57,997 nt of DNA, filler included, from Nitrospirota bacterium (GCA_016180645.1; 3 parts of 3 records of this genome joined end to end with filler, not necessarily neighbours in it); one strand, 5' to 3'; counted from the first letter of the whole stretch, positions 33,697-56,363 are shown. The notes: generated from the sequence alone by a model not told the origin. A program made the numbers and translations.

Positions 33697-35996
33697 TCAG
33701 GGCAGGCTGGTCACCGTGACGGGGGTGAGGCGGTTGACCGTCGTTCCATCGCCGAGTTCACCTTCACCGTTGTAGCCCCAGCATTTCACCGTGCCGTCGG
33801 CAAGAAGAGAACAGGAGTGACTATATCCCCCCGCCACGGCTACAGCGGCGCTGAGCGCCGACACGCCGACGGGTGTTGACTTATCCACGGTTGTCCCTTC
33901 CCCGAGCTGGCCGCTGCCACTGGTTCCCCAGCACTTGACCGTTCCGTCCGAAAGAAGCGCGCAGGTGTGGGCGTTCCCTCCCGCGACGGAGATCGCTCCG
34001 GACAGGGAGGAGACGGCCACGGGCATCCATCTGTCCGCCGTCGTCCCGTCCCCAAGCTGGCCGTAGAGATTGTACCCCCAGCACCTCACCGTCCCATCTG
34101 AAAGAAGCGCGCAGGTGTGGGTGTTCCCTGCCGCGGCGGAGATCACACCTGAAAGGGATGTGACGACAACGGGTGTCGTCTTTTGAACCGTCGTCCCATC
34201 CCCAAGGTTGCCATAGAGATTGCTTCCCCAGCATTTGGCGGTCCCGTTTGAGAGGATCGCACAGGAGTGCTGGAACCCACCCGCAGCGGCGATCGCGCCG
34301 GAGAGGGAGGAGACGGCCACGGGCGTTGACTTGTCCACCACCGTCCCATCCCCAAGTTGACCGGTGGCATTGTAGCCCCAACACTTTACCGTCCCGTCCG
34401 AAAGAAGCGCGCAGGTGTGATAACGCCCACCTGCGGTCGTGATCACACTGGAAAGAGTTGAGACGGCCACGGGCGTCGTCTTCTGAACCGTCGTCCCATC
34501 TCCAAGCTGGCCATTGCCGTTATCCCCCCAGCACTTCACGGTCCCGTCTGAAAGAAGCGCGCAGGTGTGATTCTGCCCTCCCGCCGTTGCGATCGCACTC
34601 GACAGGGAACTCACGGCGACCGGTGTGATCGAATTGGTTGTCGATCCGTTCCCAAGCTGGCCCTTGCCGTTGTACCCCCAACACTTCACCGTGCCGTTCG
34701 AAAGGAGCGCGCAGGTGCGGTTGCCGATGTGGTTGGTGAGGCCTTCGCGGAAGGGGCGGGCGGGGGCGCCGGAGGCGGTCGATACGTGCAGTCGGGGGAG
34801 TTTGACGCCGAACGGGCCGGTGAGGCTTGTGACGGCCACGGGGGTCAGCCTCGTGGCGGTCGTTCCGTCGCCGAGTTGTCCCGAACTGTTGAGGCCCCAG
34901 CACTTTGCCAGACCGTCCGATCCGAGTGCGCAGGTGTGGTTGCCGCCGCCGGCAATCATGGCCACCCCTGAGAGCGTGGAGACGGTAACCGGGGTCGTCC
35001 GGTTGGACGTTGTACCGTCGCCCACGTAGCTTCCTGTTCCCCAGCATCGGACCGTGGCGTCAGACAACAGTGCGCAGGTGTGGAGCCCTGCGGCGCCCAA
35101 GGCAACGACATTCGAGAGCGTCGACACTCCGACGGGAGTGGATTTATTCGCGGTCGTTCCATCGCCAAGGCGACCCGAGCCGTTGCTCCCCCAACATCTG
35201 ACCGTTCCGTCCGTAGAGAGGGCGCAGGAGTGGCTGGAGCCATTGCTGATCGCGACGATTCCGGAGAGGCTGGAAACGTTGACAGGCGTCGACTTGTTCG
35301 CTGTCGTCCCATCTCCGAGTTGGCCGGTGCCGCTCGATCCCCAGCATTTCACCAGTCCATCCGCTGTGAGCGCACACGTATGGTAGGCGCCGCCTCCGGC
35401 GATGGCCACCGCTCCGCTGAGAGAGGTAACGGCCACCGGCGACCACTTATCTGAGACTGTCCCGTCGCCCAATTCACCGTCGCCGTTGTATCCCCAGCAC
35501 TTCACTTTTCCATCTACGATCAGGGCGCAGGAGTGGAAATCCCCTCCGGCGATCGCCACGGCGCCGGACAGAGAGCTCACGGCCGTCGGCGTGAGTCTCC
35601 CAATGGTCGTCCCGTCCCCGAGCTGGCCTTGGCCATTGCCACCCCAACATCGGACGCCGCCGTCCACGACGAGTGCGCACGAATGCCGGTATCCTCCGCT
35701 AAACGCCACAACCCCGGTCAGAGACGTCACGGTCACAGGCGTCGATCGATCGGTGGTCGTGCCGTCCCCGATCTGCCCGAATTGGTTCAAGCCCCAGCAT
35801 CGTCCGGTGCCATCCGTGGCGAGGGCACAATTGTGAGAGTTGATGGCGGCTATGGTTTGCATGGTTGAGGTGCTTCCGCAGACGCCGCCTTCGTCGCTGG
35901 AGCCGTCGCAGTCGTTGTCTTTGGTGTCGCAGATTTCGGCGGAGGGCGAGCCGGCGGTGGCGCTGCACTGAGTGCCGGAGCCATCGGTCTTGCATG
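33697..35996 (-). CDS. RCC1/BLIP-II repeat surface protein with upstream Cys-rich metal-binding motif (5' truncated by the gap)
   Basis: Many HTCALLSDGTVKCWG.N..GQLGDGT repeats. The frame extends upstream of 35862 as CKTDGSGTQCSATAGSPSAEICDTKDNDCDGSSDEG. Confidence 0.9.
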
Positions 35997-36096
35997 NNNN
36001 NNNNNNNNNNNNNNNNNNNNNNNNNNNNNNNNNNNNNNNNTTAATTAATTAANNNNNNNNNNNNNNNNNNNNNNNNNNNNNNNNNNNNNNNNNNNN
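35997..36096. other. Artificial contig linker
   Basis: N-run, TTAATTAATTAA, N-run. Confidence 0.98.
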
Positions 36097-36230
36097 GTAG
36101 CGCCCGATTTTACATCGGGCGAGAGGTCGTCCGGTATGAAACCGGACGCTACGAAGAAAAGGATCCGGCCCGCGGCAGATGTAACCCTAATGATTGAACA
36201 ACCCCCAACCCGATCTGAACCCGAATCCCC

Positions 36231-37751
36231 TCACCCCCTCCATCTGAAATACCGCTCCAGCCATCGGCGCAACGAGGGGGTCAGCCGGGCCCGATTGTAG
36301 GCGTCTCCCAACCGCTTGATCGCCTCCGATTGAGTTGGATAGGGGTGGATCGTTGCCGCGATCTTGGCGAGTCCCACGCCGGCCGTCATCGCCAGCGAGA
36401 ATTCTGAAATCATTTCTCCCGCGTGGGCGGCAACCACCGTGGCTCCGAGGATCCGGTCCGTTCCCGCTCGCAGATGGACCCGCGAAAAGCCTTCGGTTTC
36501 GCCATCCAGCACCGCCCTGTCAATCTCGCGCAATTCGACGGTAAGAGTCTGAACCGGGATTCCGCGCTCTTTCGCCTCCCGTTCGTACAGACCCACGTGG
36601 GCGATTTCCGGATCGGTGTAGGTACACCATGGGATCGTCAACGCACTCGCCTTCTTTCGTCCGAAAAACAGGGCGTTCTGGACAACGATCCGCGCCATCG
36701 CGTCCGCCGCGTGAGTGAATTTGTACATTGAACAGATGTCCCCCGCCGCGTAGATGCGCGGATTGCTCGTCTGGAGCCTGTTCGACACCTTTACGCCCGC
36801 CCTCGAATCGTATTCGACTCCGGCGGCCTCGAGGTTCAATCCCTCGACATTCGGCGCCCGGCCGACACCGACGAGAATCTCATCCACCTCGATGTGCCCC
36901 GATTGCCCGGCGCATTCCAGCCGGATCTTCCTCGAATCGCCCTGCCTCTCCACGCTCAGGATCTTGCAGCCCAGAACCAGATTCACGGCATCCTTCGCCA
37001 GTGCCGACTGCACTCGTTCCGCCGCGTCGCCGTCCTCCCGCATGAGAATGTGCGGCGCCGCCTCAAGCAGGTGTACTTTCGACCCGAACCGGGCGAACGC
37101 CTGGGCCATCTCGCAGCCGATGGGCCCGCCCCCGATGACCGCCAGCCGCGGGGGGAGCCTCGTGAGTGAAAAGACCGACTCATTCGTGAGTGAACCGGCT
37201 TCGGCAAGACCAGGGATCGGCGGCACCGCCGCCCGCGCCCCGGTCGCAAGGACGGCCTTCTTGAAATGAAGTCGTCGTCCGTCGGCGCTGATGGTGGAAG
37301 GACCCTCGAACCGGGCGTCGGCGAGAAAGACATCCACGCCGAGCTTTCGGAATCGATCCACGGAATCGTTGGGACTGATCTGCGCCCGCAGGCGTCGCAT
37401 TCTTTCCATGACCCTCGGAAAATCAACCCGGCCGCCGGCAGGGATGGTCGTGCCGAATTCGTCCGCGCGCCGCACTTCGGCCGCCGATCGGGACGCGCGT
37501 ATCAGCGCCTTCGAGGGCACGCATCCCACGTTCAAGCAATCACCGCCCATCAGGTGCCGCTCCACAAGCGCAACCTTGGCCCCCAGCGAGGCGGCGGCGG
37601 AAGCCGTCACGAGTCCGGCGGTCCCCGCCCCGATCACCACGAGGTTGTACCGCGATGCCGGTTCAGGATTGATCCAGTCCGGTGGATGGGCATTGGCGAG
37701 CAGGGCTCGGTTGTACTCGTCGTCGGGTTTGAGGGACGGCGACGCTTTCAC
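36231..37751 (-). CDS. Pyridine nucleotide-disulfide oxidoreductase (mercuric reductase/lipoamide dehydrogenase-like)
   Basis: IGAGTAG, GGDCLNVGCVPSK, GGGPIG and HPYPTQSE. No C-terminal CC pair as in true MerA. Confidence 0.9.
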   Translation of the reverse strand: MKASPSLKPDDEYNRALLANAHPPDWINPEPASRYNLVVIGAGTAGLVTASAAASLGAKVALVERHLMGGDCLNVGCVPSKALIRASRSAAEVRRADEFGTTIPAGGRVDFPRVMERMRRLRAQISPNDSVDRFRKLGVDVFLADARFEGPSTISADGRRLHFKKAVLATGARAAVPPIPGLAEAGSLTNESVFSLTRLPPRLAVIGGGPIGCEMAQAFARFGSKVHLLEAAPHILMREDGDAAERVQSALAKDAVNLVLGCKILSVERQGDSRKIRLECAGQSGHIEVDEILVGVGRAPNVEGLNLEAAGVEYDSRAGVKVSNRLQTSNPRIYAAGDICSMYKFTHAADAMARIVVQNALFFGRKKASALTIPWCTYTDPEIAHVGLYEREAKERGIPVQTLTVELREIDRAVLDGETEGFSRVHLRAGTDRILGATVVAAHAGEMISEFSLAMTAGVGLAKIAATIHPYPTQSEAIKRLGDAYNRARLTPSLRRWLERYFRWRG

Positions 37752-38386
37752 GGGGTGGGCAAACTTTCACGCAGGCTGCGCCGCGCAAGGCGGGTGACAA
37801 AGAGCGTGACTCCGATCGTGGCCAGCAATCCCGCCCAATAGAACGCCTTTCCCGCGGTGCCTGCCTCCGGCGCCCTCCCCCCGATCAATTGCGTCGCTTC
37901 CGTGACCAACGATCCCAGGTATACATAAAGAAAAGTTCCAGGCAACATCCCGATGAAAGAGCCCAGGACGTACTTGGGGAGACTGATCCGCGTCAGACCG
38001 AAGGCGTAGTTGACCAGCGTGAAGGGAAATATCGGGCTGAGTCGGATGAGCACGAGGATCTTAAGCGCCTCCCGGCCGATCGCTTGATCCAGCCCTTTGA
38101 ATTTCGGACTACCCGCCATGCGCCGGCTGATCCAATCGCGGGCGAGGGTTCGCCCGAGAAGGAAGGCGCCCGTGGCGCCGAGCACACTGGCCGGTGAAAC
38201 GATGGCGGTCCCGACCAGCGGTCCGTACACAAAACCCGCCGCCAGCGTGAGGATCGAGCCGGGCAGAAACGCGACGGTCGCTGCCGCATAGATCACTACA
38301 AACGCCGTCGCCCCGATCGCGCCGGCGCCGCGGATCCAGTCAATGCCGGAGAGGGCCCAGTCGCTCAGCAGCACCCCGGCCCGCAC
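37748..38386 (-). CDS. TVP38/TMEM64 (DedA/SNARE-associated) membrane protein
   Basis: FLPGSILTLAAG and LIRLSPIFPFTLVNYAFG motifs; start may be 38374. Confidence 0.9.
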   Translation of the reverse strand: MRAGVLLSDWALSGIDWIRGAGAIGATAFVVIYAAATVAFLPGSILTLAAGFVYGPLVGTAIVSPASVLGATGAFLLGRTLARDWISRRMAGSPKFKGLDQAIGREALKILVLIRLSPIFPFTLVNYAFGLTRISLPKYVLGSFIGMLPGTFLYVYLGSLVTEATQLIGGRAPEAGTAGKAFYWAGLLATIGVTLFVTRLARRSLRESLPTP

Positions 38387-40923
38387 CTTTCCGACTCGGC
38401 TGCCGCCGTCTCCGCAATCTCAAACGCCAAGGTCTTCGCGTTTTCCTCCGCCTCCAGCACAACGAACGAACCCGCATACGGCGCATGCCTCAATTTCGCC
38501 GCCGTATCCGTGCAAACCTCCACCGGTTCGTTTCGCGGAAACAGGTGCCCCTCCTCGTCAATCGCCGCCTTGAACGGTCCCGCATAAATAGCCCGCTGGC
38601 CGATGTACCGGCAACCGTCCTTCTTCTCGAATTTGAATCCCTCGACCGTGATGGAAGAAAAATGAAGTCCCTCCACTTCCCTCCATGGTTTCTTGTCGAT
38701 CAGGCGCAGGCCGTAGAAGCCGGACTTCTCCAAACCCGCGAGAAACTCCTCCTCGGTCAGCGCCCCGGTGATGCAGGCGCCGCGGAGCTGGATGTCCCTC
38801 TGAAGTTCCATCGAGACTGTGCGATCGGACACAATATCCGAGATGACCGCCCGACCGTGGTCCCTGAGCACTCTCCACATCTCGGCGAAGACCGCTTTCT
38901 TGTCCGGCGAAAGATTGATCACGCAATTGGACATGACCAGATCCGCAGTCCGGTCTTCCACCGGCACGTGCTCCAAGTATCCCTTCCGGAACTCCACCGC
39001 GTTGTAGCCCAGGCGGTCGGCCACCTCGGTCCCACATCGGCGGGCCACGTCCAGCATTTCGTCCGTCATGTCGACCCCGATGGCGCGGCCGTTCGGTCCG
39101 ACTTTCTTTGCCGCGATGAAGCAGTCGATCCCCGCGCCCGAGCCGAAGTCCACGACCACTTCGCCTTCCCGAATCCGGGCCGCGGCCACCGGCCCGCCGC
39201 AGCCGTAGAATCGGTCGATCACATCCTGGGGGATATGGCCCAAGTCCTCCGAGTCATATTTCACGGGGCAACAGAGCGCCTCCTGTGGTTCTTTCGCCGC
39301 GGCAGCGTAGAACGAACGAACGTCCTCCCGCATATGCGCGATGTCGGACGCGAGGTGGCACGACGAATGGCCCAGGGCCACGCCGTTCCGACCCCGCGTG
39401 AGCGCCGATTCCTGTCCGCAAAGGATCGCGTCGCCCATGGACCGCAAAACGACCGGGGCGTTGAAGCCCGATCGGGGATTCGGGGCACCCCCATCCCCCG
39501 CAAGATGCGCCGCCGAACTCGCCTCGCTGAGCAGGATGTCCTCCAGCGCGGTCTTATACAGATCGCAAAAGGGATCGTGGGCGTGGAAACCGTCGCCCGC
39601 GCGCCGCGACCGGCCGTTCTGGGAGTAGAAATAGCCGTGTTCAATCTCCCCCCCCCCGCAGATGAACCGCCACGTGCACGATCGGCACATCTCCTTATTG
39701 ATGACCGATACTTTGCGGGTTTCGGCCAGCACTTCAGAGCTCCTCCAGATCGACTCCAAGGGCGATTCCAAAACATTCCCGCAAGACAGCGCGGGATAGC
39801 CGGCAGTCGAGGCCGACGGGAACACGCGCCCGTCGGCATAGACGCACAGGCTCTCAAAACCGGCGCTGGAGTGGTCCATCTTCACCCCGCGACGCCCGTG
39901 AATGCGGGCGCGGAAAGACTCGAAGTTGTCGACCGTCACGCCAACCTCCGCGCCCGCCTCTTTCGCTTCCCGGAGAACTTCAAGACATTCGAGCGCCGAC
40001 AAGCTGAATTGACCGTTCATGGCCGCCGACCTTCCGCGGTGATGCGGCCAAATCAGGTGGTGGCTTTTCACGCCCAGGGTCGCGAGCAGACGCGTGACCT
40101 CCGCAACCTTGTGCCGGTTGGCGGCATTCACAACCGTTGTGACAATCGGTGCAAAGCCAGCCGCCTGCGCCGATCGGATTCCGCGAAGGATGGGATCGAA
40201 GCTGCCCTTCCCTCGGATCGGGTCGTTTGTTTCCGCATCCGGCCCGTCCAGGCTGATTTGGAGGACCAACGGGCGCCCGGAGTAATCCCGTAATCGATCC
40301 AGCGTCGGCCCTTTGAAAAGCATCCCATTGGTCAGGATGACCAGTTTCCGGTCGGGACGGCTCAGGACGAAATCCATCAGCTCGAAAATATCTTTGCGCA
40401 GGAACGGCTCGCCTCCCGTGAAGTAGACCTGGCCGGTTCCCAGATCGAACGACTGCCGTAGGATGGCTTTCCACTGATCCGTGGAGAGTCCCTGATCCTC
40501 CTTCGGACCGGAAGAAACGAGGCAGTGGGAACACGAAAGATTGCAGGAATTGTTGAGATGGAGCCAGATCTCGCGGAGACCCGTGAGTTGGAGAATCTCG
40601 CTTCGCCCTAGATAGCCCGGCCGCGCCGCAAACGGCTCGTCGCTCACGAAGCCCGCGCGGGCGGCATCCTTGATGAACGTTGCGCAATGGACCCAAGCGG
40701 CGGCCGTGGGTGTTCCCGTCTCAGCGGAGTACCTTCGGACAACGGCGTCGAATGACGTTGTTCCATCCAGCCCTTCGAGAATCTTCGCTCCTCGCGAATC
40801 CGTGCTGATCCAGTTCGGCCCCTCGGGATCCAGGAAGACGACCATTCCATCCCGCTCCTTCCGAACGAAATCCGGCACGTGCCAAACCGTTTGATCGGTG
40901 AACAGCATTTGCGAACGATCCAT
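38365..40923 (-). CDS. Fusion: PqqD/RRE-like domain + radical SAM/SPASM + ArsM-like methyltransferase
   Basis: [19 protein letters not shown]-like [13 protein letters not shown]; ArsM-type [32 protein letters not shown] and CGPGCC tail. Confidence 0.88.
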
Positions 40924-40937
40924 ATCTCTGCCTCCCA

Positions 40938-42062
40938 TCATAAATATTCGACGCCCAGCCAGTATGCCCCCGCCGAAAAGGCCGCGGAAAGCGGCAGCGT
41001 GATGACCCATGCAAGCACGATTTTCCGCACCACGCCCCACCGCGCCCCGCCTCCGACCGCGCCGATGCCCAGGAGCGACCCCACGGACACGTGCGTCGTG
41101 GAAACCGGCAACCCGAAGAGGGAGGCCGAGACGACAAGAGCGGCGGTGACCAGGTTTCCCGAGAGAGCCTGACCGTGATTCATCTCCGTGATCCGCCGGC
41201 TCATGGTATCCGCCACGCGTTTCGCGGCGAGCAGGCCGCCCGCCGCAATGGCCATCGCCACGAACAGATTCGATCCCGGCGAGGCAACGGCACCCGTCGC
41301 AAGCAGCAAGGCCACCATCTTCGGAGTATCGTTCAACCCTCGCGCAAAGCTCACGACGCCCGCGGATGCAAAGTGCGCGCCGCCGAGTACAGCCTGAATC
41401 GACACCCCCAGCATTCGCCCCCGGTAGCGTTCGGCGCAGGCGCCGACTGAATCGGATCGTACGGTAATCATCCTTCGCGCGATCGCCGCCCCCTCACCCG
41501 CCGGACTCAGGCCGACGGCCACCACCTGCTCTTCCTCCCCTACGCAAATGCAAAACTCCTTTTCAATCCCCAGCCGTTTTCGAGCGGAGGTCGCCACACC
41601 ATAGGTCAGCACGGTCAGCACCCCGGCAATCAGCGGGGACACGAGCAGCGGCACGAAAAAGTCGAATCCGAGCGCGGACCAATGAAGGCCCGAACCCGCG
41701 GCTGCGAGACCGGCGCCCGCGAGGGCGCCCACCAAGGCGTGCGTGGTTGAAATCGGGAACCCCCTCCACGTGGCGAGCAGGACCGTCAGCGCAGCGCCGA
41801 GAGCCACGGCCAAGACAAACGAAGGTTCACCCGCGATCGCATCGGGCACAAGCCCCTTGCCGCTGAATCTCCTACCCAACTCGCCCGCCAGGAAAATCGC
41901 CCCGAGCGATCCCGCCAGCGTGGCCGCCGTCGCCCACGTCAACGCGCGCCGGTAATTCGCCGTCCCGCTCCCGACCAGCGTGGCCACGCCCTTGAAGTTG
42001 TCATTCGCTCCATTCGCGAACGCAACCAACATCGCCACGACGATCAGTCCAATCTCCAACAT
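40938..42062 (-). CDS. PiT-family inorganic phosphate/anion transporter
   Basis: ANGANDNFKG, PISTTHA, RGLNDTPK and PVSTTHV signature repeats. Confidence 0.9.
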   Translation of the reverse strand: MLEIGLIVVAMLVAFANGANDNFKGVATLVGSGTANYRRALTWATAATLAGSLGAIFLAGELGRRFSGKGLVPDAIAGEPSFVLAVALGAALTVLLATWRGFPISTTHALVGALAGAGLAAAGSGLHWSALGFDFFVPLLVSPLIAGVLTVLTYGVATSARKRLGIEKEFCICVGEEEQVVAVGLSPAGEGAAIARRMITVRSDSVGACAERYRGRMLGVSIQAVLGGAHFASAGVVSFARGLNDTPKMVALLLATGAVASPGSNLFVAMAIAAGGLLAAKRVADTMSRRITEMNHGQALSGNLVTAALVVSASLFGLPVSTTHVSVGSLLGIGAVGGGARWGVVRKIVLAWVITLPLSAAFSAGAYWLGVEYL

Positions 42063-42218
42063 GATATCCGTCCGTGGTCCCGCCACCCCCATTCGTTACG
42101 CCCATGGACGGGCCGCACCCGAAGCTGCTCAGAGGCGCCCGGAAGGCATCTCAATGCTCTGCGCGGGGTGCGCCGTGGTCCTCCTGTCAATCAGAGACCG
42201 CAGAACCTCCGTCGATCC

Positions 42219-43607
42219 TCAAAAAGCAAATTCCCAGCCGATCCTGGCGGCATGCGCCTCCACCGCATCAGATCCCGACGACCTCATGTAGTGATATTCG
42301 GCAACCCATCGCTGAAACTCCCACGGCGAGGCAAACCCCACGGTCACGGCGCGCGTCCCGCCCCCTCGGGCGTCCGAAGGATCGAAGAAGTCATAGCGAA
42401 CCAAGGGCGTGAAATTGTCCCACAGGGCGATATCGACTTCACCGAAGAATCCCTTGCTGTTGATCGGTACCCTTTCGCCACCCGATTCGACCATGTCCCG
42501 CCCCCCCCCTATTCCGGCGAGCAGATGCAGTGCGTCGATGGGAGGATAGTTCGCAACGATGGCGCCGCGCCAGAAACCGTTTCGAAAGGTTTCGGAGTCT
42601 GGGTCAGATGCGTCCTTGGGTTCGTCCACGCTCCCCAAGTATCCAACGATTTCCACGGCCCCGCCGGTGTCTCCGACAAACTGAACGAGGTTGAACGCCG
42701 CGTCCACGCGGTTGTTATCTCTGGAGAAACCTGCCGTTCCGCTCCCATCTGAGGCAAGCCCGTTGAAGACCGTGATGGAGGCCAAGGTATCCTCACGGCC
42801 GCCGCCGAGCATCACCCCGATCTGGCTCGGATACGCGAAGGAAAAAGTCTTTCCCGCGGCGGGTGTGGCGGTTACAAGGGGTTCCGTAAAAGTGACGGAG
42901 TTGTCCAGGCCCGCCCATCCCTCCACGGGATGCATGATCCCGGCTTTGACCTGGAAGAACCGATCTTCCTGCCCGAACGTGGCGCGCACATTGCCCATGT
43001 GGACGTCCGCCTTTCCGCTGTCCGCGGCGAGCCGCACGTCGAAAAAGGTTGAGTAGTACCGCCCGAACGGCGCGCTGGAGAAAATGTCGACTTCAGGCGC
43101 GGAAAAACCGATCCTGGTCTTGGAAGAGTCCGTTCCCAACACCCCGGCCGTTTCCGCATCTCGTCTGGGAGACTTCTCTCGGCGGATTGGAGCGACCCCG
43201 AGCGGGATGGAGCCGATGTTGACCTCCGCCGCGGGGACGGCGTCTTCTTTGTTGCAGAAGATCGTGATCCCCGTGCTCCCTCCGTGGGTGTGACCGGGGA
43301 CATCCACACTCTCCACGAACACCTCCTTGTCCACGCACCGGGAGGAGCGAGTCACATTGAATGACAGGCCGCCCTTCATGGCGAAAGCATCGAGGAGCCG
43401 TTTGAGACCGGGGCCTTCTTCGCCGTTGATTTCTTGAGGAGTGCGATAGCCCATCGCGCGGAACATGAACCCGAATTTGTTCAGCCGGGGCCAGGAATCG
43501 TGGCAACGATGACACGGCATCTTTTCGCGGCGGGCGAAAGCGGGGATGGCATGGGCCTCCCGCGGGACGGCGTGCCAGGCGGTCATCGCCAACGCCAGGC
43601 CCGCCAT
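42219..43607 (-). CDS. Outer-membrane beta-barrel protein with N-terminal c-type heme motif
   Basis: Signal peptide ...AHA-IPAFARREKMPCHRCH..WPRLNKFG; amphipathic strands; C-terminal WEFAF. Start may be 43661. Confidence 0.78.
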   Translation of the reverse strand: MAGLALAMTAWHAVPREAHAIPAFARREKMPCHRCHDSWPRLNKFGFMFRAMGYRTPQEINGEEGPGLKRLLDAFAMKGGLSFNVTRSSRCVDKEVFVESVDVPGHTHGGSTGITIFCNKEDAVPAAEVNIGSIPLGVAPIRREKSPRRDAETAGVLGTDSSKTRIGFSAPEVDIFSSAPFGRYYSTFFDVRLAADSGKADVHMGNVRATFGQEDRFFQVKAGIMHPVEGWAGLDNSVTFTEPLVTATPAAGKTFSFAYPSQIGVMLGGGREDTLASITVFNGLASDGSGTAGFSRDNNRVDAAFNLVQFVGDTGGAVEIVGYLGSVDEPKDASDPDSETFRNGFWRGAIVANYPPIDALHLLAGIGGGRDMVESGGERVPINSKGFFGEVDIALWDNFTPLVRYDFFDPSDARGGGTRAVTVGFASPWEFQRWVAEYHYMRSSGSDAVEAHAARIGWEFAF

Positions 43608-43623
43608 GATCCGGGCGGTGCAG

Positions 43624-44040
43624 CTACCCAGCCTCAGTCGTAAGGGGTGGGCGCCAGTCATCTTGCAGCGCAGCCGCTTTCCGAATCCAACGCCGGAATT
43701 CCGGATACGCATCCAGTATGAGTTTCCAACCCGCTCGACTGATAAAGGTGACCCCCACCTTGCCTGCCGCCTGCGTGGAAACGGTGAGTTCGCTGTTGCT
43801 CATCAGCGCGTGAACTCCCAGGAGGCACGGCTCGCTGCAATCTCCTACCCCGGCGCCTCCTCTGAGGAACGAAAGATGTCCGGTTTCGTGCAGGTAGACT
43901 CCGAGTGGCCGATGACCTTCATAGGCGATCACCTGACCCGACCGGAAACATTGTCCGGTACCTCGGCCTTTGATTACGAAGGCAAGGGCGGGACTCGGAA
44001 GGCGGCTAATGGGGATGGTGGGCGCCGGGATCGAAAGGCC
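43624..44040 (-). CDS. Stand-alone cyclic-nucleotide-binding (Crp-like) domain; no clear start, possibly a remnant
   Basis: FRSGQVIAYEGHRPLGVYL...LLGVHALM...VTFISR parallels YKKNQVIAHEGVRPHGVFL...LVGYRSLL...VTFLDR of the Crp/Fnr at 22067-22721. No HTH. Confidence 0.55.
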   Translation of the reverse strand, partial: GLSIPAPTIPISRLPSPALAFVIKGRGTGQCFRSGQVIAYEGHRPLGVYLHETGHLSFLRGGAGVGDCSEPCLLGVHALMSNSELTVSTQAAGKVGVTFISRAGWKLILDAYPEFRRWIRKAAALQDDWRPPLTTEAG

Positions 44041-44115
44041 CGATGGCCCTCGAATCTCCGGCGCCTTACCACAGTCCCCTGCCCTATGAGATGCGGCCGC
44101 ATGCCCGGCCGGATT

Positions 44116-44243
44116 AGAGCCTATCCCAAAACCTGACGAGGGAGAGGCGGGTTCCGCGGAGCCTGAAGGCTCCGCTACAGGTGAAACACAGCTTCTCCGT
44201 AGCGGGCCCTTTAGGGTCCGCGATACGTTTTGGGACAGGCTCT
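44116..44243. mobile_element. MITE-like element with 17-bp terminal inverted repeats enclosing GTAG-type palindromes
   Basis: AGAGCCTATCCCAAAAC ... GTTTTGGGACAGGCTCT (16/17 complementary); sits on the stop codon of 44243..45358. Confidence 0.65.
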
Positions 44244-45358
44244 CAGAAGAACACATGGACCATGCCGATGACCTCGCTGATGCCGCCAATCGGATTGTCG
44301 GATCGGGCCACGGAACGGCGGTACAGCATTTTGAACTCGAGATACGGAATCGGGAACATTTCGAATCCGCCGCCGACGCGGTGAACGAGATCGCCCTCCA
44401 GGTCGAAATCCGGGTTGGTGTATTCATAGAGTCCTTGGATTTCAAGACCCCGCCTGACGATGACGTTGGCCTCCTCATAGAGGACCCATCCCCGAACGGT
44501 TTTCTTCGCGCCCAGATCGCGGTTCGAGAACCAGTCGGCCTCACCGAGGTACCCCAAGCGCCCGTAGGACGCGCCCCAGATGACGCCGTCCCGCACGGCG
44601 ATTCTGCGGGGCGACTCTTCGGCCGTTTCACGGCTGCCGGTGAGATTGTACAGACTGGACAGGCCGAGCATGATCGGGACTTGGCCGAGACGTGAGCCAT
44701 ATTCGACGCGGGCGGTTGCGGCCTTTTCGGTATTGTTGTCTTGGTTGACTTTGCCTCCCACGCCGTTGAACACGTCCAACTGGACGAGGAACGGGCCGGG
44801 CCGGATTCCGAATTCAATGCCCGTCTCTTTCTCGCGCGGCGCGAAGCCGATGTCCTCCCGCACGAACGTGCGGTGGTTGTCGAGCCGCCAACCGTAGGTG
44901 GGAATGAACCGGCCCACTTTGACGAAGCTCCCGGCCCAGGGGAGGGAGATGATTCCCATGGCCTCATAGGTTCCGTTAAGACCTTGGTCGTAGTAGAGGT
45001 TCAGCCGCTCGTGCAGTTTCGCCGAGGCGTATAAATCCGCCTGCATCTGGAAGAAGGAGCTCGTGCTGGTGACGCCCTCTTCCTGGGATGGGATGTAGAT
45101 GTATGCCGAGCGAGAGTCGGCTCCAAGGCGAAGCGGGCCGACCTCCGGCGGGGCCCAGACTTTTCCGATCCGAGTCAAGGGCAGGTCGAGCCGTTCGTAC
45201 ACCTGGCTTCCGTACGCGTTCCGCATCCCACCGCCCGAGGGATTGACGTGGCAGGCGCCACACGTCATGCCCTCCCGTACGGCAAACCGCGGCAGAGCCG
45301 ACGCCGACGCGGAGCCCAGCAGCCACAGGCTCAGGATGAGCGAAATCCGTCGAATCAT
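44243..45358 (-). CDS. Outer-membrane beta-barrel protein with N-terminal c-type heme motif
   Basis: Signal peptide ASA-LPRFAVREGMTCGACHVNPSGGGMRN, FFQMQADLY, GRFIPTYG, C-terminal HVFF. Confidence 0.8.
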   Translation of the reverse strand: MIRRISLILSLWLLGSASASALPRFAVREGMTCGACHVNPSGGGMRNAYGSQVYERLDLPLTRIGKVWAPPEVGPLRLGADSRSAYIYIPSQEEGVTSTSSFFQMQADLYASAKLHERLNLYYDQGLNGTYEAMGIISLPWAGSFVKVGRFIPTYGWRLDNHRTFVREDIGFAPREKETGIEFGIRPGPFLVQLDVFNGVGGKVNQDNNTEKAATARVEYGSRLGQVPIMLGLSSLYNLTGSRETAEESPRRIAVRDGVIWGASYGRLGYLGEADWFSNRDLGAKKTVRGWVLYEEANVIVRRGLEIQGLYEYTNPDFDLEGDLVHRVGGGFEMFPIPYLEFKMLYRRSVARSDNPIGGISEVIGMVHVFF

Positions 45359-45780
45359 CTGGGTCGTTCCAGACGGATTTCGGCGCGCGGCGCCGCGGAG
45401 AGCGGGCGGATTCGGATCCTATCCGCCGCGCCGGCATATCCAAACGGATCGACTCCCGCTTTCAGCATCCCGGCGTACGGCGTGTCCGAAGGGTCCAGAT
45501 CGACCGATGCGCCGACCACGTAGTCCCCCGGCGGCAGGCCTTCAAACCGGACCGTGGTTGGGAACGAGTAATCTTCGATGAGCTTGTATGCGAGCGGGGC
45601 ACCTGTTGGAGGGTGAGACTCGTAGACGGCTACGGCCAGGGGCTGCCCCGCCCGCGCAGTTTTTCCGTGGTAGTCGATGATGACGTCGAGGGAGCCTTCC
45701 CCGCCCCCCACCTGCCCGCCGCAACTTTCGAGCAGGCAGACAAGCGCCATCCCTATTCCAAGCCGAAGAATCTTTCCCAA
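45355..45780 (-). CDS. Putative lipoprotein
   Basis: Lipobox LESC; beta-rich FEGLPPGDYVVGA. Start at TTG 45780 or ATG 45750. Confidence 0.6.
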   Translation of the reverse strand: MGKILRLGIGMALVCLLESCGGQVGGGEGSLDVIIDYHGKTARAGQPLAVAVYESHPPTGAPLAYKLIEDYSFPTTVRFEGLPPGDYVVGASVDLDPSDTPYAGMLKAGVDPFGYAGAADRIRIRPLSAAPRAEIRLERPR

Positions 45781-46523
45781 AGTCCTTTCTCCTTTCCAAG
45801 CGAGCGAACGTAATGAACGACGTCCCATAGTTCCTCCGGACTGACCAAATCCTGGTGGGAGGGCATGGGAGTGCCGCAGATGCCTTGGACGATCACGCGG
45901 TAGAGATCCGTGTTCGTCCCGCCGCTCTTGAAAAGCGCCTTTGTAAAGTCTCGCGGGCGGACGGATCCACCCCAATCATCTTTCAGAGTACCGGCCGAGG
46001 GGCCGTCCCCGCGCCCCGAGGGGCCGTGACATTTTGCGCACTCCAGGTCTTCGAAGACTTTTCGGCCTCGTTCGATCCCCGGGGCGTCCACCGCCGTTTC
46101 GGGCGGGACGCCGGAGGCCCCGGCGGGCCTGGGGGATGACGTAATGAGTTGCAGGACGAAAGCCGCCACGGAGGAAATCTCTTCATCGCTCAGCATGCCC
46201 GCCCATCCGGGCATTTTCGTGCCGGGGAGGCCATCCCTGACGATGCGCTCGATGTCCTCCCGCTGCGGAAGCGAGCCGCACGGCGTGGTCTGGAATTTGA
46301 GAACCCCTTTCCGGAAGTCGCGCGGGCGCGGATTCATGTACGAAGAAACATCGCCCTGTCCGTCCCCTTCGGCGCCGTGGCAGGCGGCGCAGGCATTGCG
46401 GTAGGCATCCCGGCCTTGGATCAGGCGCAGAACCGCGTTGTCCGCTCCGGCTTCACCCCACGCGGGGCCGCCCAGGCAACAGATCCCCGTCAAAAGTACC
46501 ACGGCTGCGTAAAACGCTTTCAT
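45753..46523 (-). CDS. Diheme cytochrome c
   Basis: CAACH...PRDF...PGTKMP and CAKCH...PRDF...GTPMP (His/Met hemes); signal peptide. Confidence 0.9.
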   Translation of the reverse strand: MKAFYAAVVLLTGICCLGGPAWGEAGADNAVLRLIQGRDAYRNACAACHGAEGDGQGDVSSYMNPRPRDFRKGVLKFQTTPCGSLPQREDIERIVRDGLPGTKMPGWAGMLSDEEISSVAAFVLQLITSSPRPAGASGVPPETAVDAPGIERGRKVFEDLECAKCHGPSGRGDGPSAGTLKDDWGGSVRPRDFTKALFKSGGTNTDLYRVIVQGICGTPMPSHQDLVSPEELWDVVHYVRSLGKEKGLWERFFGLE

Positions 46524-46550
46524 CCTCGCCTCTATTTGGAGGGGTTCTTC

Positions 46551-46700
46551 GAGCCTCTAACAGAATGCCGATTCGTAGGGGAGCATTTTCAGATGCTCCC
46601 TCTTGTCGGGAGGGTCTGAAGACCCTCCCCTACGCATTCTGTTGCTCCTTCTTGTCGGGAGGGTCTGAAGACCCTCCCCTACGCATTCTGTTAGACGCAC
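46551..46700. mobile_element. MITE-like palindromic element with internal duplication
   Basis: Reverse-complement homolog of 54450-54550; ends GAGCCTCTAACAGAATG / CATTCTGTTAGACGCAC; abuts the TAA stop at 46701. Confidence 0.75.
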
Positions 46701-47270
46701 TTATTCCTCTACGATGAGGGTTCCCTTGAGCTTTGGGTGGATCGTGCACCACTGGTTCTGGCAGGAGAACCCGTAGCGCCCCGGGGTGTCGGCGCTGAAT
46801 TCCACGGTTCCGGACGGCTTTGCGGCCGACAGCTCCGTCTCGGGCAGACTCAGCCCTGAGAACGCGATGATATGCACGTTGTCTCCTGTCGTATCGCTAT
46901 TGACGAACTTGATACGCACGCGCGAGCCTCTTTTCACGGTCAAGGTGAAGCCTTTGGGCACGCCGCCAAAACCGTTTGACGTGATCTCTACCGTGATATC
47001 CGAAGAGGTCGGGCCCGCCGCGGCGGCGGACGGCGCCGGTTGACCCGCGGCAGGTTGTTCGCCTGTCGGGGCGGTGGGAGCGCTGGGCTGGGCCGCCTGA
47101 ACGTCCGGCCCGCTTCCGGCGATTTGATGGCCTTCGTGTTCGCTCGAATCCACGGCTTGGAAGTCGGCCACGTCGATGCGGGCCAGCGGGGCATCCTCCA
47201 ATCCGCACGCCGGGGCCGCGGTAAGAGCCGCGACCGCCAAGGCATACCCGTATCGGCAAGGTGTACACAT
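46701..47270 (-). CDS. Cupredoxin-domain lipoprotein
   Basis: APAC lipobox-like, VKRGSRVRIKFVNSD..NVH, FSADTPGRYGFSCQNQWCTIHPKLKGTLIVE. Confidence 0.82.
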   Translation of the reverse strand: MCTPCRYGYALAVAALTAAPACGLEDAPLARIDVADFQAVDSSEHEGHQIAGSGPDVQAAQPSAPTAPTGEQPAAGQPAPSAAAAGPTSSDITVEITSNGFGGVPKGFTLTVKRGSRVRIKFVNSDTTGDNVHIIAFSGLSLPETELSAAKPSGTVEFSADTPGRYGFSCQNQWCTIHPKLKGTLIVEE

Positions 47271-47287
47271 CACGGCGCTCCTCCCCG

Positions 47288-48799
47288 CTACTTCGACCGG
47301 AAGACGTTGACGCTGACTTTGTCCGTCTTCCACACGATCTCTTTGACACCGAGCAGGTCTTCCTTGGCCGTCCTCGCGCTGCCGTGGAGGCCGGACTGAT
47401 CGGAGAGAACCTCGCCGGCCAACGAGCCGTCGGAGTTGACGGCGTATTTCACAAAAGAGCCGTTGTGGGAGCTACCCGTGTGGTTGATGGTCTTTTTGAT
47501 CTCGTTTTTCGTCAGGTCGAAGACCACATCGCGGAAGTTGGAGTTGTAGCTGATCCAGAGTTCATTCCTGTCGGGATTCGGATGGAGGATTCCATGGTCG
47601 CCCCGCAGGCAGTGCGTCTCGAAGGTGTCCGACGGCGCCATGGCCACCGGATCGACGAGGCCCAGGGCTTTCCCGCGATTGTGCGACGCCTCGCCCTTCT
47701 CCACCACATAGAGTTGGGTGTCGTCCCAGTTGAGATGGATGCCGTACCCGCCGTGGACCGCGGAACGCGAGGTGCCGATCATCTTCATCGTGACGTTGTC
47801 GATCTTGAAGATCTCGTCGCTCCCGCCGTCACCGACGTAGGCGTACTTCCCGTCCGCGGTGAAGGCCGTCCAGATCGGATCAAAACCGACGGTGAAATAC
47901 TTCACGGGCTTCCAGGTTTTCATATCCACGATCGCGACGCTGCCTTCCAGCTTGTGCCGGATGTCCGGATCCGATATGGGGCCGGGAGGGAGGCCGACGT
48001 AGAGGTGACGACCGTCCGGATGGGGGAAAGCCAGGTAGGGATTGCCTTGAACATCCTCGCTCCTGAAGCCGCCGACCACGCGATTATTGTCGTTCGGATC
48101 GAGAACGTAGATGCCGGAACCCGGCTGGATGCTGCCGGGCACCTGCCAGTTGAAGTTTTCAACAAGCACGAGATCCTTGCGCGTCTCCCCGTCATAGTAG
48201 TTCACGGTTCTGACGTGATGGGGATAGCTGCTGGTTTGAAGAATCTGATGCATTTTGAGCGTTTGCGCATTGACGATGAGAAGTCGCCCCGCCTCCTTGA
48301 TGGGTTTCGCCATGTCGCCCGTCGGAATGTAGAAGAATTTTCCGTCGGGCGAAGCGGCTGAACCGTGATCCTCCCACAACTTCTTCGGATCGACTCCATC
48401 GAGTTGGAACTGTTTTTCCACGATAACCTCATAGGTGTCTGCATCGACTACGACGAGTCCCGGAGTTTGCGTGGGCGAGGGGAACCCGCCATAGCCGGCC
48501 CCGTTCGTGGTCATGTATATGAGAGGGTGCTTCGCCGCATCCCACGCCGCATCCCCGCTGGAGTCGTATTGCGCCATCAGCTTGATCTCCAGTTTCTGGG
48601 AGAACGTGGTGTCCCAGCCGGTCGGTGATGTGGCCGGCGTGGACGTTCCGCCGGGAACGACCACGGTGTCCGTGGACGTGGGGACCGGAGTTCCTTTCTG
48701 GTCCGCGCTGCCGGAAGCGGTTTTGTCCTCCGTGCCGCAGGCGAAAGTGACGGCCATGCTGACGACAAGCAGGGCAAACAGGCGCGATAATTTGTTCAT
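47288..48799 (-). CDS. His-rich YVTN/cytochrome cd1-type beta-propeller lipoprotein
   Basis: Lipobox FAC; blades HGSAASPDGK, PHH, PHPDGR, FTADGK, DHGILHP and SHNG; SD AAGGAGG. Confidence 0.8.
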   Translation of the reverse strand: MNKLSRLFALLVVSMAVTFACGTEDKTASGSADQKGTPVPTSTDTVVVPGGTSTPATSPTGWDTTFSQKLEIKLMAQYDSSGDAAWDAAKHPLIYMTTNGAGYGGFPSPTQTPGLVVVDADTYEVIVEKQFQLDGVDPKKLWEDHGSAASPDGKFFYIPTGDMAKPIKEAGRLLIVNAQTLKMHQILQTSSYPHHVRTVNYYDGETRKDLVLVENFNWQVPGSIQPGSGIYVLDPNDNNRVVGGFRSEDVQGNPYLAFPHPDGRHLYVGLPPGPISDPDIRHKLEGSVAIVDMKTWKPVKYFTVGFDPIWTAFTADGKYAYVGDGGSDEIFKIDNVTMKMIGTSRSAVHGGYGIHLNWDDTQLYVVEKGEASHNRGKALGLVDPVAMAPSDTFETHCLRGDHGILHPNPDRNELWISYNSNFRDVVFDLTKNEIKKTINHTGSSHNGSFVKYAVNSDGSLAGEVLSDQSGLHGSARTAKEDLLGVKEIVWKTDKVSVNVFRSK

Positions 48800-54981: not shown

Positions 54982-55371
54982 ATGGACGACGCAGCGCAGA
55001 CGGTGAAAGGGAACGGGGAATCGGCTCACGGGCTGATCCAGAAGGTCAAGAGGGCGACGCGGAGGCGGTTTGGGGCGGAGGAGAAGATTCGGATTCTCCT
55101 GGAGGGGATGAAGCGGGAGGTTTCGACCTCGGAACTTTGCCGGAAGGAGGGGATTCATCCGCACGCCTATTATTCGTGGCTGAAGGACTTCATGGAGGCT
55201 GGGAAGTCGAGGCTGAGGGGGGATTTGAAGCGGAGCGCGACCGAGGGGGAGGTGGAGAGCCTGCGGCGGGAGAACGAGAGGCTGAAGGTGATTTTGGCGG
55301 ACCCGGTTCTGGAGAACACCCTTTTGAAAAAAAGTCTGATCGGGTCGGAGATCGATGGACTTACGCGATGA
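54982..55371 (+). CDS. IS3-family transposase OrfA
   Basis: RRRFGAEEKIRILLEG...ELCRKEGIH..YYSWLKDF...LRRENERLK. Confidence 0.88.
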   Translation: MDDAAQTVKGNGESAHGLIQKVKRATRRRFGAEEKIRILLEGMKREVSTSELCRKEGIHPHAYYSWLKDFMEAGKSRLRGDLKRSATEGEVESLRRENERLKVILADPVLENTLLKKSLIGSEIDGLTR

Positions 55372-56363
55372 CGGCTGCCGAGAAGGCGAGCCTGATCGAC
55401 CGGGTCGAGGGGAGCCGGTGCAAGAGGCGGCTTCTCCGGGCGCTCGGGATACCCGACTCGACGTACTACCACTGGGTGCGGCTTTACCGGGAAGGGGGAC
55501 CGAACGCATTGGATAAGCTTTTGCCCGTGGCCCGGACGATCTGGAACCGGATCACGCCGAAGGAGGAGCTGAGAGTCCTGGAGATCGCGCGGGACCTCCC
55601 GGAGCTCTCTCCCCGGCTTCTGTCCGTAAAGATCACGGATGAAGAGGAGTTCGCCATCTCGGAGTCGAAGGTCTACGAGATCCTGAAGAAGAACGATCTC
55701 ATTCGGCCCCGGCCCTTGCCGGAGCTTCCGGCGAGGTCGGAGTGGCCCCACAAGACGAGGAGGCCCAACGAGATCTGGCAGATCGACGCGACGACGTTCT
55801 TCGTGGCGGGATGGGGGTACTACAAGCTCATCCCCGTTCTTGACGACTACTCCCGGAAGATCCTGGCGTGGGACCTCCTGCCGGACGAATCGGCCGGTTC
55901 GATCTCGAACGCGGTGGAGCAGGCGGTGGAGGCGACGGGAATACCGGAGCGGCCGGAGCACGAGAAGCCGACGCTTCTGTCCGACAACGGATCGGGCTTC
56001 ATCTCGTGGCTCCTGGCGGACTACCTCAAGGCCCACGGCATCCGGCACATCTTCGGCAAGCCCTATCATCCGCAGACGCAGGGAAAAATCGAGCGGTTCA
56101 ATCGGCGGATCAAGGAGGGCGAGTGTCTGATCGTGTATCTCAGCCCCGGAGACCTCAAGGAGGCCCTCAAGCTGGCCATCGTGCGCTACAATGCCACACC
56201 GCACGAGGCGCTGAAAAACGTGGCGCCGAACGACCTGTACGCCGGCCGCCAGGAGGAGATCCTCAGGCGCCGGGAGGAGAAAAAGAAAGCGACCTACGCC
56301 CGTCGCAAGGAGTATAATCGGGGCGTGAACAACGGTCCGGCTCAGCCCGGAAAGTGTGACTAA
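55368..56363 (+). CDS. IS3-family transposase OrfB (rve integrase core)
   Basis: PNEIWQID, VLDDYSR, LLSDNG and HPQTQGKIERFNR (DDE). Confidence 0.9.
   Translation: MTAAEKASLIDRVEGSRCKRRLLRALGIPDSTYYHWVRLYREGGPNALDKLLPVARTIWNRITPKEELRVLEIARDLPELSPRLLSVKITDEEEFAISESKVYEILKKNDLIRPRPLPELPARSEWPHKTRRPNEIWQIDATTFFVAGWGYYKLIPVLDDYSRKILAWDLLPDESAGSISNAVEQAVEATGIPERPEHEKPTLLSDNGSGFISWLLADYLKAHGIRHIFGKPYHPQTQGKIERFNRRIKEGECLIVYLSPGDLKEALKLAIVRYNATPHEALKNVAPNDLYAGRQEEILRRREEKKKATYARRKEYNRGVNNGPAQPGKCD

Follow-up and report, generated by a model that had tools for sequence, protein, structure and literature searches.

To our knowledge, only two radical S-adenosylmethionine (SAM) routes to carbon-arsenic bonds have been described, those of ArsS and ArsL, and ArsM-type methyltransferases require a thiol-reducing system. 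In two preprints, ArsS is described as adding a 5'-deoxyadenosyl group (5'-dA) to a methylated arsenical (bioRxiv 10.64898/2026.04.29.721666), and ArsL as a CxxxCxxC enzyme that cleaves SAM the other way (bioRxiv 10.1101/2024.02.01.577332) and whose C-terminal RCCLKC motif binds As(III) (bioRxiv 10.64898/2026.04.29.721666, 10.1101/2024.02.01.577332). The stretch of DNA analysed here (the window) comprises 57,997 nucleotides from the genome of a groundwater Nitrospirota bacterium (GCA_016180645.1, here G000) and consists of several contigs joined by spacers. One of these contigs, C14, which starts at about 36098, carries genes for a PiT-type carrier, an 852-residue fusion of radical SAM and ArsM-type domains, a VTT membrane protein and a flavoprotein reductase.

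The fusion is probably a bifunctional organoarsenical synthase that takes the place of both ArsS and ArsM, with a carrier, a reductase and a membrane protein dedicated to it. In related genomes it replaces the two known arsenosugar enzymes, and it therefore probably makes carbon-arsenic compounds by an unstudied route. What was observed is how the fusion is built from domains, which of its residues are conserved, which genes surround it and, in the genomes searched, that it does not overlap with ArsS; every step of the mechanism proposed below is inferred. An earlier note on this DNA had read the locus as a candidate organo-arsenic or organo-selenium pathway, an interpretation that our analysis partly supports. 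A literature search that covered sources outside subscription journals found no paper on the fusion.

The four-gene unit and its fusion protein

Four co-directional minus-strand open reading frames (ORFs) form one tight unit, in the order PiT carrier, fusion, VTT protein, reductase:

40938..42092, minus strand: PiT/PHO4-family carrier, 384 residues, first gene of the unit (PF01384, E 3.6e-61)
38365..40923 (stop codon included), minus strand: fusion protein, 852 residues, with RRE, radical SAM, SPASM and ArsM-type methyltransferase domains and a Cys tail
37748..38386, minus strand: VTT/TVP38 (DedA-superfamily) membrane protein, 212 residues (PF09335, E 8.2e-30)
36231..37751, minus strand: FAD/NAD(P)H pyridine-nucleotide disulfide oxidoreductase, 506 residues, with a CLNVGC redox motif

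The PiT and fusion genes are 14 nucleotides apart, the VTT and reductase genes overlap by 4 nucleotides, and the fusion and VTT genes overlap by 22 if the VTT gene starts at its first GTG, which bears out the tight packing described earlier. The G+C fraction at third codon positions is 0.75-0.77 in all four genes. The longest ORF for the fusion would encode 891 residues from a GTG at 41040; the product is likely the 852-residue form that starts at the ATG at 40923, because a GGGAGG lies 7 nucleotides upstream of this ATG, the alignments of homologues begin there, and the protein collection contains an identical 852-residue entry. Within the fusion, the domains are as follows:

40639..40890, minus strand: RRE, a PqqD-like winged-helix domain, residues ~12-95
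39889..40572, minus strand: radical SAM core, residues ~118-345 (PF04055, E 6.4e-25)
39499..39882, minus strand: SPASM-type auxiliary-cluster domain, residues ~348-475 (PF13186, E 1.7e-6)
38449..39288, minus strand: ArsM-type As(III) SAM methyltransferase including its C-terminal domain, residues ~546-825
38368..38448, minus strand: flexible C-terminal tail ending C-x3-CC, with a predicted local distance difference test score (pLDDT) below 50 at residues 843-852

Pfam places PqqD (PF05402) on residues 29-93 with 21.6 bits, slightly below the 23.4 cut-off, followed by Radical_SAM on 125-266, SPASM on 354-417 and Methyltransf_31 on 585-710; across 41 family members, PqqD is found in 24 (E<=0.01), SPASM in 34 and Radical_SAM in all. 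The PqqD-like N-terminus that had been noticed earlier held up in structure prediction: an AlphaFold model of residues 1-111, built from 46 sequences, has a pLDDT of 88.1, and its top Foldseek matches, TbiB1 (5v1v, E 6e-4), PqqD (5sxy), the PbtF RRE (8t19) and lasso B1 (6jx3), are leader-peptide-binding RRE proteins. A family profile of the domain reaches TbiB1 among PDB sequences at E 0.042. The model of the whole fusion has a pLDDT of 85.6 and a predicted TM score of 0.84, with the last ten residues disordered. Its N-terminal half matches SkfB, CteB, SuiB, TigE, anSME and PqqE, with a TM score against CteB of 0.70-0.72 (normalised to the target) over 482-488 columns.

These structural matches make up the case for a maturase of ribosomally synthesized and post-translationally modified peptides (RiPPs), in which the RRE would bind a leader, the radical SAM/SPASM part would cross-link or otherwise modify the peptide, the methyltransferase would methylate it, and the cysteines of arsenic type would have survived as a relic. 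In favour are the confidently predicted RRE fold, whose nearest structures are of proteins that bind leader peptides, and the likeness of the N-terminal half to CteB, SkfB and SuiB, maturases of sactipeptides and ranthipeptides. We nevertheless consider this role extremely improbable. The window has no space for a precursor gene, as the fusion is 14 nucleotides from the PiT gene and overlaps the gene that follows it, and a comparison of 980 small ORFs near the fusion in 67 loci gave no same-strand cluster present in more than three of them, in line with the earlier remark that no precursor peptide is evident. Moreover, no RiPP-type peptidase or exporter recurs in the fusion loci, and the five ArsM cysteines do not vary.

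Conservation was counted in an alignment of 41 family sequences. The CxxxCxxC motif reported before, C127-x3-C131-x2-C134, is invariant (41/41), as is the SAM-binding core. The SPASM-like cysteines were seen correctly in part: C413, C416 and C422 are kept in 40/41 sequences, but the motif is CX2CX5CX3[D/E] and not the full seven-cysteine set, the fourth position (426) being Asp in 38/41, Glu in 2/41 (including the window) and Cys in 1/41. Of the other cysteines in this domain, C360 is kept in 39/41, C453 in 35/41 and C381 in 29/41. C522, in the linker that follows, is invariant.

The C-terminal half is closest to solved arsenic methyltransferases. Compared with 4fr0/4kw7, the domain aligns at E 1.6e-41 (fusion residues 558-822 to chain residues 55-339), the CmArsM alignment extends through the CmArsM C-terminal domain, and the structural matches are CmArsM (Foldseek 4fr0, E 6e-23), 5evj, CrArsM and human AS3MT. 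C575, C667 and C717 align to C72, C174 and C224 of CmArsM and are invariant in 41/41; the pair C551/C552, likewise present in 41/41, lies 23-24 residues before C575, just outside the aligned block, where C44 of CmArsM would fall. Cysteines at four ArsM-type positions and a CC tail are thus present as first described. In the alignment the C-terminal CC is kept in 40/41 sequences; 39/41 proteins end in it, with one or two extra cysteines a few residues earlier. The tail is also present on all 10 of the 10 free-standing ArsM proteins checked, which stand beside ArsS or a separate small radical SAM protein.

The fusion family and ArsS across genomes

The fusion is a member of a large unnamed family. 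The homologue search gave 627 clusters at E<=0.001 among 7998 candidates scored, with full-length relatives at 47-53% identity that by source name belong to Scalindua/Brocadiales, Nitrospirota, Acidobacteriota, Thermodesulfobacteriota, Armatimonadota and Omnitrophota; marine anammox bacteria are among the holders, and one relative reaches 72% identity. On the fusion, every curated NCBIfam model stays below its cut-off. The ArsM models score 232.9 bits against 263 (PRK11873), 206.6 against 500 (methyl_ArsM) and 152.4 against 400 (AsSugarArsM), and families of ArsM-like selenoproteins match partially at 134-150 bits, all below cut-off. ArsS (TIGR04167) scores 51.7 bits against 300, over model positions 5-149 only. 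G000 has 14 weak matches to the ArsL family (NF040542), none above 450 bits, and the fusion is not one of them. These results confirm the earlier remark that its architecture differs from both enzymes. The top radical SAM model, the uncharacterised Rv1681 family, gives 133 bits against a cut-off of 380. The earlier note had counted membership in a characterised family of unrelated function as evidence against itself; since the radical SAM domain falls outside any characterised family, that objection does not arise.

In a tree of 131 ArsM-domain rows, all fused forms lie on one side of a branch (62 rows, Shimodaira-Hasegawa-like approximate likelihood ratio test 94) and the free-standing forms, those linked to ArsS among them, fall on the opposite side, with the window's domain sister to that of its family-level relative; the tree is a quick, midpoint-rooted one, and the choice of rows followed how the loci were fetched. 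Other architectures were seen alongside the long fusion. A subfamily of ~1000-1077 residues (L153-L169, e.g. L153:8992-12153) has a radical SAM part with 30-35% identity and no match to the window's RRE, and is likewise accompanied by VTT, reductase and TIGR04282/3 genes. A short fusion of 608-640 residues joins radical SAM and ArsM without an RRE and occurs in 24/132 genomes of one class, and in a split form a 'Rv1681-like' radical SAM protein of ~290-350 residues stands beside a free ArsM (loci listed for the short and split forms: L004:1575-3401, L006:6718-8592, L187-L190; L010, L011, L021, L025, L026, L034, L035). A 1170-residue open frame at L122:1526-5038 is a possible further fusion, joined to a PiT-like part.

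The relation to ArsS was followed with the help of two families, TIGR04282 and TIGR04283, both of which NCBIfam names 'arsenosugar biosynthesis glycosyltransferase'. Among eight fusion-holding genomes (G000, G001, G040, G044-G048), none has ArsS over its cut-off and six have TIGR04282 over its cut-off. A profile search of G000 itself found no ArsS and no ArsL-family protein; its TIGR04282 (197 bits against 134) and TIGR04283 (261 against 182) lie side by side at G000:C5:1334-2817, divergent from msrB/msrA. Elsewhere in this genome, a 588-residue open frame (G000:C60:85572-86960) contains an Acr3 arsenite carrier (460 bits, above cut-off) and an ArsC-like stretch of the low-molecular-weight-phosphatase type (45 bits, below cut-off).

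The class around G046, with 132 genomes, gives a broader view (long or ~1000-residue fusion at E<=1e-80, ArsS at E<=1e-40). The long or ~1000-residue fusion is present in 36 genomes, 32 of which have TIGR04282; ArsS in 33, of which 31 have it; and the short fusion in 24, of which 22 do. Not one genome combines the long fusion with ArsS or the short fusion with ArsS, and a single one has both kinds of fusion. TIGR04282 is found in 97/132 genomes, and one of the three radical SAM types is present in 84/97 of these, compared with 8/35 of the TIGR04282-negative genomes.

Gene neighbourhoods point in the same direction. We collected 87 loci, 66 of them with the long RRE-type fusion and most of these on short contigs, and counted neighbours by tblastn within each locus's DNA; their identities come from Pfam and NCBIfam scans of representatives, and for thioredoxin and ArsR from reading the sequences. 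Among the 66 loci, PiT is found in 20, VTT in 14, the reductase in 14, TIGR04282 in 12, TIGR04283 in 11, thioredoxin in 10, DUF547 in 8, DUF3179 in 6, an ArsR-type regulator in 5 and a DUF255 thioredoxin-domain protein in 5, and the TIGR04282 and TIGR04283 neighbours exceed their cut-offs. At least one of PiT, VTT, reductase and TIGR04282/3 is present in 37/66. No candidate co-substrate enzyme recurs in the fusion neighbourhood, and a B12-radical SAM protein is near the fusion in only 2/87 loci (L001, L007). In three closely related loci (L096:3309-3437, L097:1974-2153, L098:2545-2610) a short conserved same-strand ORF ends just upstream of the fusion, and the ArsR-type regulators upstream in these loci have a C-terminal CC motif.

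This setting also bears on which metalloid is handled. A unit that detoxifies or volatilises a different soft metalloid (Sb(III), selenium or tellurium species, for example), with PiT and the VTT/DedA protein for uptake and the flavoprotein to reduce the oxyanion, would fit the links made in other bacteria between the handling of tellurite or selenite and PiT, DedA-type proteins and flavoprotein disulfide reductases, as well as the partial, below-cut-off matches to ArsM-like selenoproteins. It is highly unlikely all the same, since all the As(III)-binding residues of the solved ArsM are retained, ArsR-type regulators and arsenosugar-linked families are among the neighbours, and in the genomes searched the fusion does not co-occur with the arsenic enzyme ArsS. 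Nothing in the loci is specific to selenium, and no in-frame TGA was reported in the fusion matches. Of the two elements proposed in the earlier note, then, arsenic is supported by comparative genomics, through TIGR04282/3, ArsR, thioredoxin and the lack of ArsS co-occurrence, and selenium is not.

The accessory genes can be assigned more closely than before. The reductase is an NF004991 'FAD-containing oxidoreductase' (816.9 bits against 620); its earlier description as MerA-like did not survive, because it scores 405.8 bits against the 454.45 cut-off of MerA (TIGR02053). It has a CLNVGC (CxxxxC) redox pair and lacks both a C-terminal Cys pair and a metal-binding N-domain. Without these MerA features, it more likely recycles thiols than reduces arsenate, so the reduction step that the earlier note gave it is not upheld. 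Among 41 diverse genomes, NF004991 is over cut-off in exactly three, the three fusion holders, and each copy adjoins the fusion. In the 132-genome class it is over cut-off in 14 genomes, of which 14 have TIGR04282 (within ~1 kb in 7/14), nine have ArsS and two have the ~1000-residue fusion. Synechococcus elongatus is the one control genome over cut-off for ArsS and NF004991, and apparently also for TIGR04282, where a second genome is listed among the matches. Reductases with ~200-residue N-terminal extensions, in open frames of 687-725 residues (L124:11690-13753, G004:C3:128483-129904, G030:C9:251424-252848), are perhaps VTT-reductase fusions. The PiT protein matches PF01384 with 207.5 bits over profile positions 1-350, its full length, and exceeds no NCBIfam cut-off; its subtype is rare, found at E<=1e-20 in G000 and G001 only among the 41 diverse genomes. 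That it takes up arsenate is inference only. Judged by these distributions, the accessory genes seem to belong specifically to gene sets of the arsenosugar type, irrespective of which radical SAM enzyme is present.

A candidate route to carbon-arsenic bonds

Several points weigh against the fusion being an organoarsenical synthase. Its radical SAM domain is unrelated to ArsS in architecture and resembles peptide maturases, its ArsM domain falls below every curated ArsM cut-off, and its well-folded RRE domain has no explained role. The names of TIGR04282 and TIGR04283 themselves rest on genome context (hypoth_equivalog, equivalog), so that the case builds one argument from context upon another. 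TIGR04282 is nearby in just 4 of the 14 loci that have long flanks (PiT in 6, the reductase in 3 and VTT in 2), and in G000 the transferases are on another contig, beside msrAB, without overlap of the contig ends. The nearest relative, G001 (84% complete), and G044 have no TIGR04282 over cut-off, and in the 132-genome class over-cut-off NF004991 is found in 0/33 holders of the long type, 9 of which have a ~500-bit relative. Kin genomes are not independent and many are incomplete, so the non-overlap with ArsS could partly reflect lineage; the figures are counts, not statistics. Finally, one family member (L002) has lost most of its SPASM cysteines.

L002 also speaks for plain arsenic methylation as a means of detoxification, in which the radical SAM half would serve only as an accessory with a redox or regulatory function, supplying electrons or sensing oxygen for example, and no third carbon-arsenic bond would be made. 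ArsM alone is enough for methylation in many organisms. This simpler function is very unlikely here, given that the CxxxCxxC motif and SAM-binding core are kept in 41/41 sequences, that ArsS does not co-occur in the genomes searched and the arsenosugar transferases are retained, and that the fused ArsM domains group on a branch of their own.

If the fusion is an organoarsenical synthase, As(III) would be bound on the conserved cysteines of its ArsM domain and methylated with SAM, and the radical SAM/SPASM domain would reductively cleave a second SAM and form a further carbon-arsenic bond. The likeliest radical step would be addition of the 5'-deoxyadenosyl radical to the methylated As(III), as in ArsS; the adenosylated arsenical would feed an arsenosugar-type pathway that this genome would complete with its TIGR04282/TIGR04283 transferases from another contig. 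The Cys-rich C-terminal tail probably ferries As(III) from one active site to the other, as the As(III)-binding RCCLKC tail of ArsL suggests by analogy. With NAD(P)H, the NF004991 reductase most likely holds the cysteine pairs, or else a thioredoxin-like carrier, in the reduced state, while the PiT-type carrier would move the oxyanion substrate or the product across the membrane, and the VTT protein may handle a membrane-bound intermediate or carrier lipid.

The same organoarsenical purpose might be served by other radical chemistry, with a product that is not that of ArsS. Hydrogen could be abstracted from a sugar, lipid or amino-acid carbon, which would be joined to arsenic at an auxiliary cluster or at the Cys tail in a sactisynthase-like manner, or a 3-amino-3-carboxypropyl group could be transferred, as by ArsL. 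The matches of the N-terminal half are suggestive here, because CteB, SkfB, SuiB, TigE and anSME all abstract hydrogen and ArsS is not among them; the Asp or Glu at the fourth SPASM Cys position in 40/41 sequences could free or change a coordination site of one auxiliary cluster; the linker cysteine C522 never varies; and ArsL sets a precedent for a CxxxCxxC enzyme with alternative SAM cleavage. We still judge such chemistry unlikely, since the TIGR04282/TIGR04283 context that fusion and ArsS genomes share speaks for an intermediate identical or closely similar to that of ArsS, the fusion has no match to NF040542, and the neighbourhood offers no recurring candidate enzyme for a co-substrate.

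A more specific proposal, which we rate as distinctly unlikely, would give the RRE a function. In this self-contained 'arsenic sactisynthase', As(III) would be bound and methylated on the ArsM domain and then travel on the enzyme's own flexible tail; the RRE would grip the tail in the manner of a leader peptide and show it to the SPASM-type site, where a carbon radical would attack arsenic near an auxiliary cluster lacking one cysteine ligand. A predicted complex of tail residues 816-852 with residues 1-500 scored 0.02 against a mark of 0.32, which is no evidence either way. If true, the proposal would amount to a third and mechanistically new route to carbon-arsenic bonds and to the first RRE that recognises its own polypeptide; the product would be unlike that of ArsS, and the VTT and PiT proteins would place it in or across the membrane.

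As an organoarsenical synthase, the fusion would belong to a third radical SAM route to carbon-arsenic bonds, and to a common family. Its host comes from groundwater, where microbial arsenic transformations decide the mobility and toxicity of arsenic. With methylation and radical chemistry combined in a single polypeptide, it lends itself to studies of arsenic transfer from one active site to another, and the recurrent partners give testable roles to three families that so far have generic names only, the NF004991 reductase, a rare PiT subtype and the VTT proteins.

Contig context and comparison with known systems

Outside the four-gene unit, three features mark the contig and its ends:

35997..36097, no strand: artificial N/stop-codon spacer between contigs, read directly
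36098..36205, no strand: short dispersed repeat at the contig end, outside the operon
55137-56363, plus strand: transposase with rve integrase core and helix-turn-helix domains, near the far contig end

The operon begins 133 nucleotides from the contig end, which lies within the repeat. An RCC1-repeat gene at 33697-35862 is not an operon neighbour, because the contig spacer intervenes. The repeat is hairpin-rich and is also found at G000:C45:37337-37434 and at the start of G000:C5, at contig ends; the 103-nucleotide end of C14 has 15 further matches in this genome, the word depth of the repeat is ~3.7x, and contigs branch at it in four runs, breaking the assembly in all four. The operon stretch was found in only four DNA runs, all from one study, and no RNA run is among the listed holders. 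A 7099-nucleotide contig of a public run matches 36166-42400 with zero differences; this run may be the source sample and is not independent support. A scan of the operon DNA for promoter and terminator consensus sequences gave hits no more numerous than in shuffled sequence.

Two ways of extending the operon across the repeat were rejected. It could not be joined to the contig with TIGR04282/TIGR04283, as the starts of C14 and C5 have no terminal overlap and msrB/msrA intervene, and C45 does not serve as a link: its end shares 98 nucleotides of repeat with C14, but the two contigs enter the repeat with the same orientation. None of the pathway genes lies in the final 12 kb of C45. The genes upstream of PiT (42219-48799) were likewise rejected as part of the operon, having no synteny in the six related loci compared. 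They form a minus-strand electron-transfer gene set that is not syntenic with the fusion in other loci: two paralogues (42219-43712 and 44243-45358), each of which has a CxxCH haem motif in its N-terminal part, a beta-barrel-like body with Phe as its last residue and no Pfam match, are joined by genes for a dihaem cytochrome c at 45753-46523, a CuA-like cupredoxin at 46701-47333 and a YVTN-type beta-propeller at 47288-48799. Next come genes for a histidine kinase and a sigma-54 response regulator.

Compared with described systems, the operon reductase shares with MerA and the class-I disulfide oxidoreductases the FAD and NAD(P)H domains, the dimerisation domain and the CxxxxC pair. MerA has a C-terminal Cys pair and a metal-binding N-domain, and the operon enzyme, which has neither, is an NF004991 protein that tracks arsenosugar-type genes in the genomes sampled. 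The fusion shares with CteB, SkfB, SuiB and the PqqE-PqqD maturases the domain order RRE-radical SAM-SPASM and the fold of its first ~480 residues, but no precursor peptide gene was found near it in the loci compared, it has Asp or Glu in place of the fourth SPASM cysteine, and it has an arsenic methyltransferase attached.

The arsinothricin enzymes ArsL and ArsM are alike in that a radical SAM enzyme pairs with ArsM for carbon-arsenic bond formation, and in that a flexible C-terminal Cys motif probably holds As(III), as is shown for ArsL (bioRxiv 10.1101/2024.02.01.577332). The Cys tail of the fusion, however, follows the ArsM domain and differs in motif from RCCLKC, whereas that of ArsL ends the radical SAM protein; the fusion system also has no ArsQ-type permease and no detectable similarity to NF040542.

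The arsenosugar enzymes ArsM and ArsS are the closest counterpart. They too combine a radical SAM enzyme with an ArsM-type methyltransferase that has a C-terminal domain and a CC tail, and TIGR04282/3, the NF004991 reductase, VTT and PiT are also found beside ArsS in two loci (L012 and L016). The radical SAM part of the fusion is of the RRE and SPASM type, with no DUF3641 or ArsS-type C-terminal Cys-rich domain among its Pfam matches, and it is joined to ArsM in one polypeptide where ArsM and ArsS are two. Among the genomes searched, each has one type of radical SAM enzyme or the other, never both.

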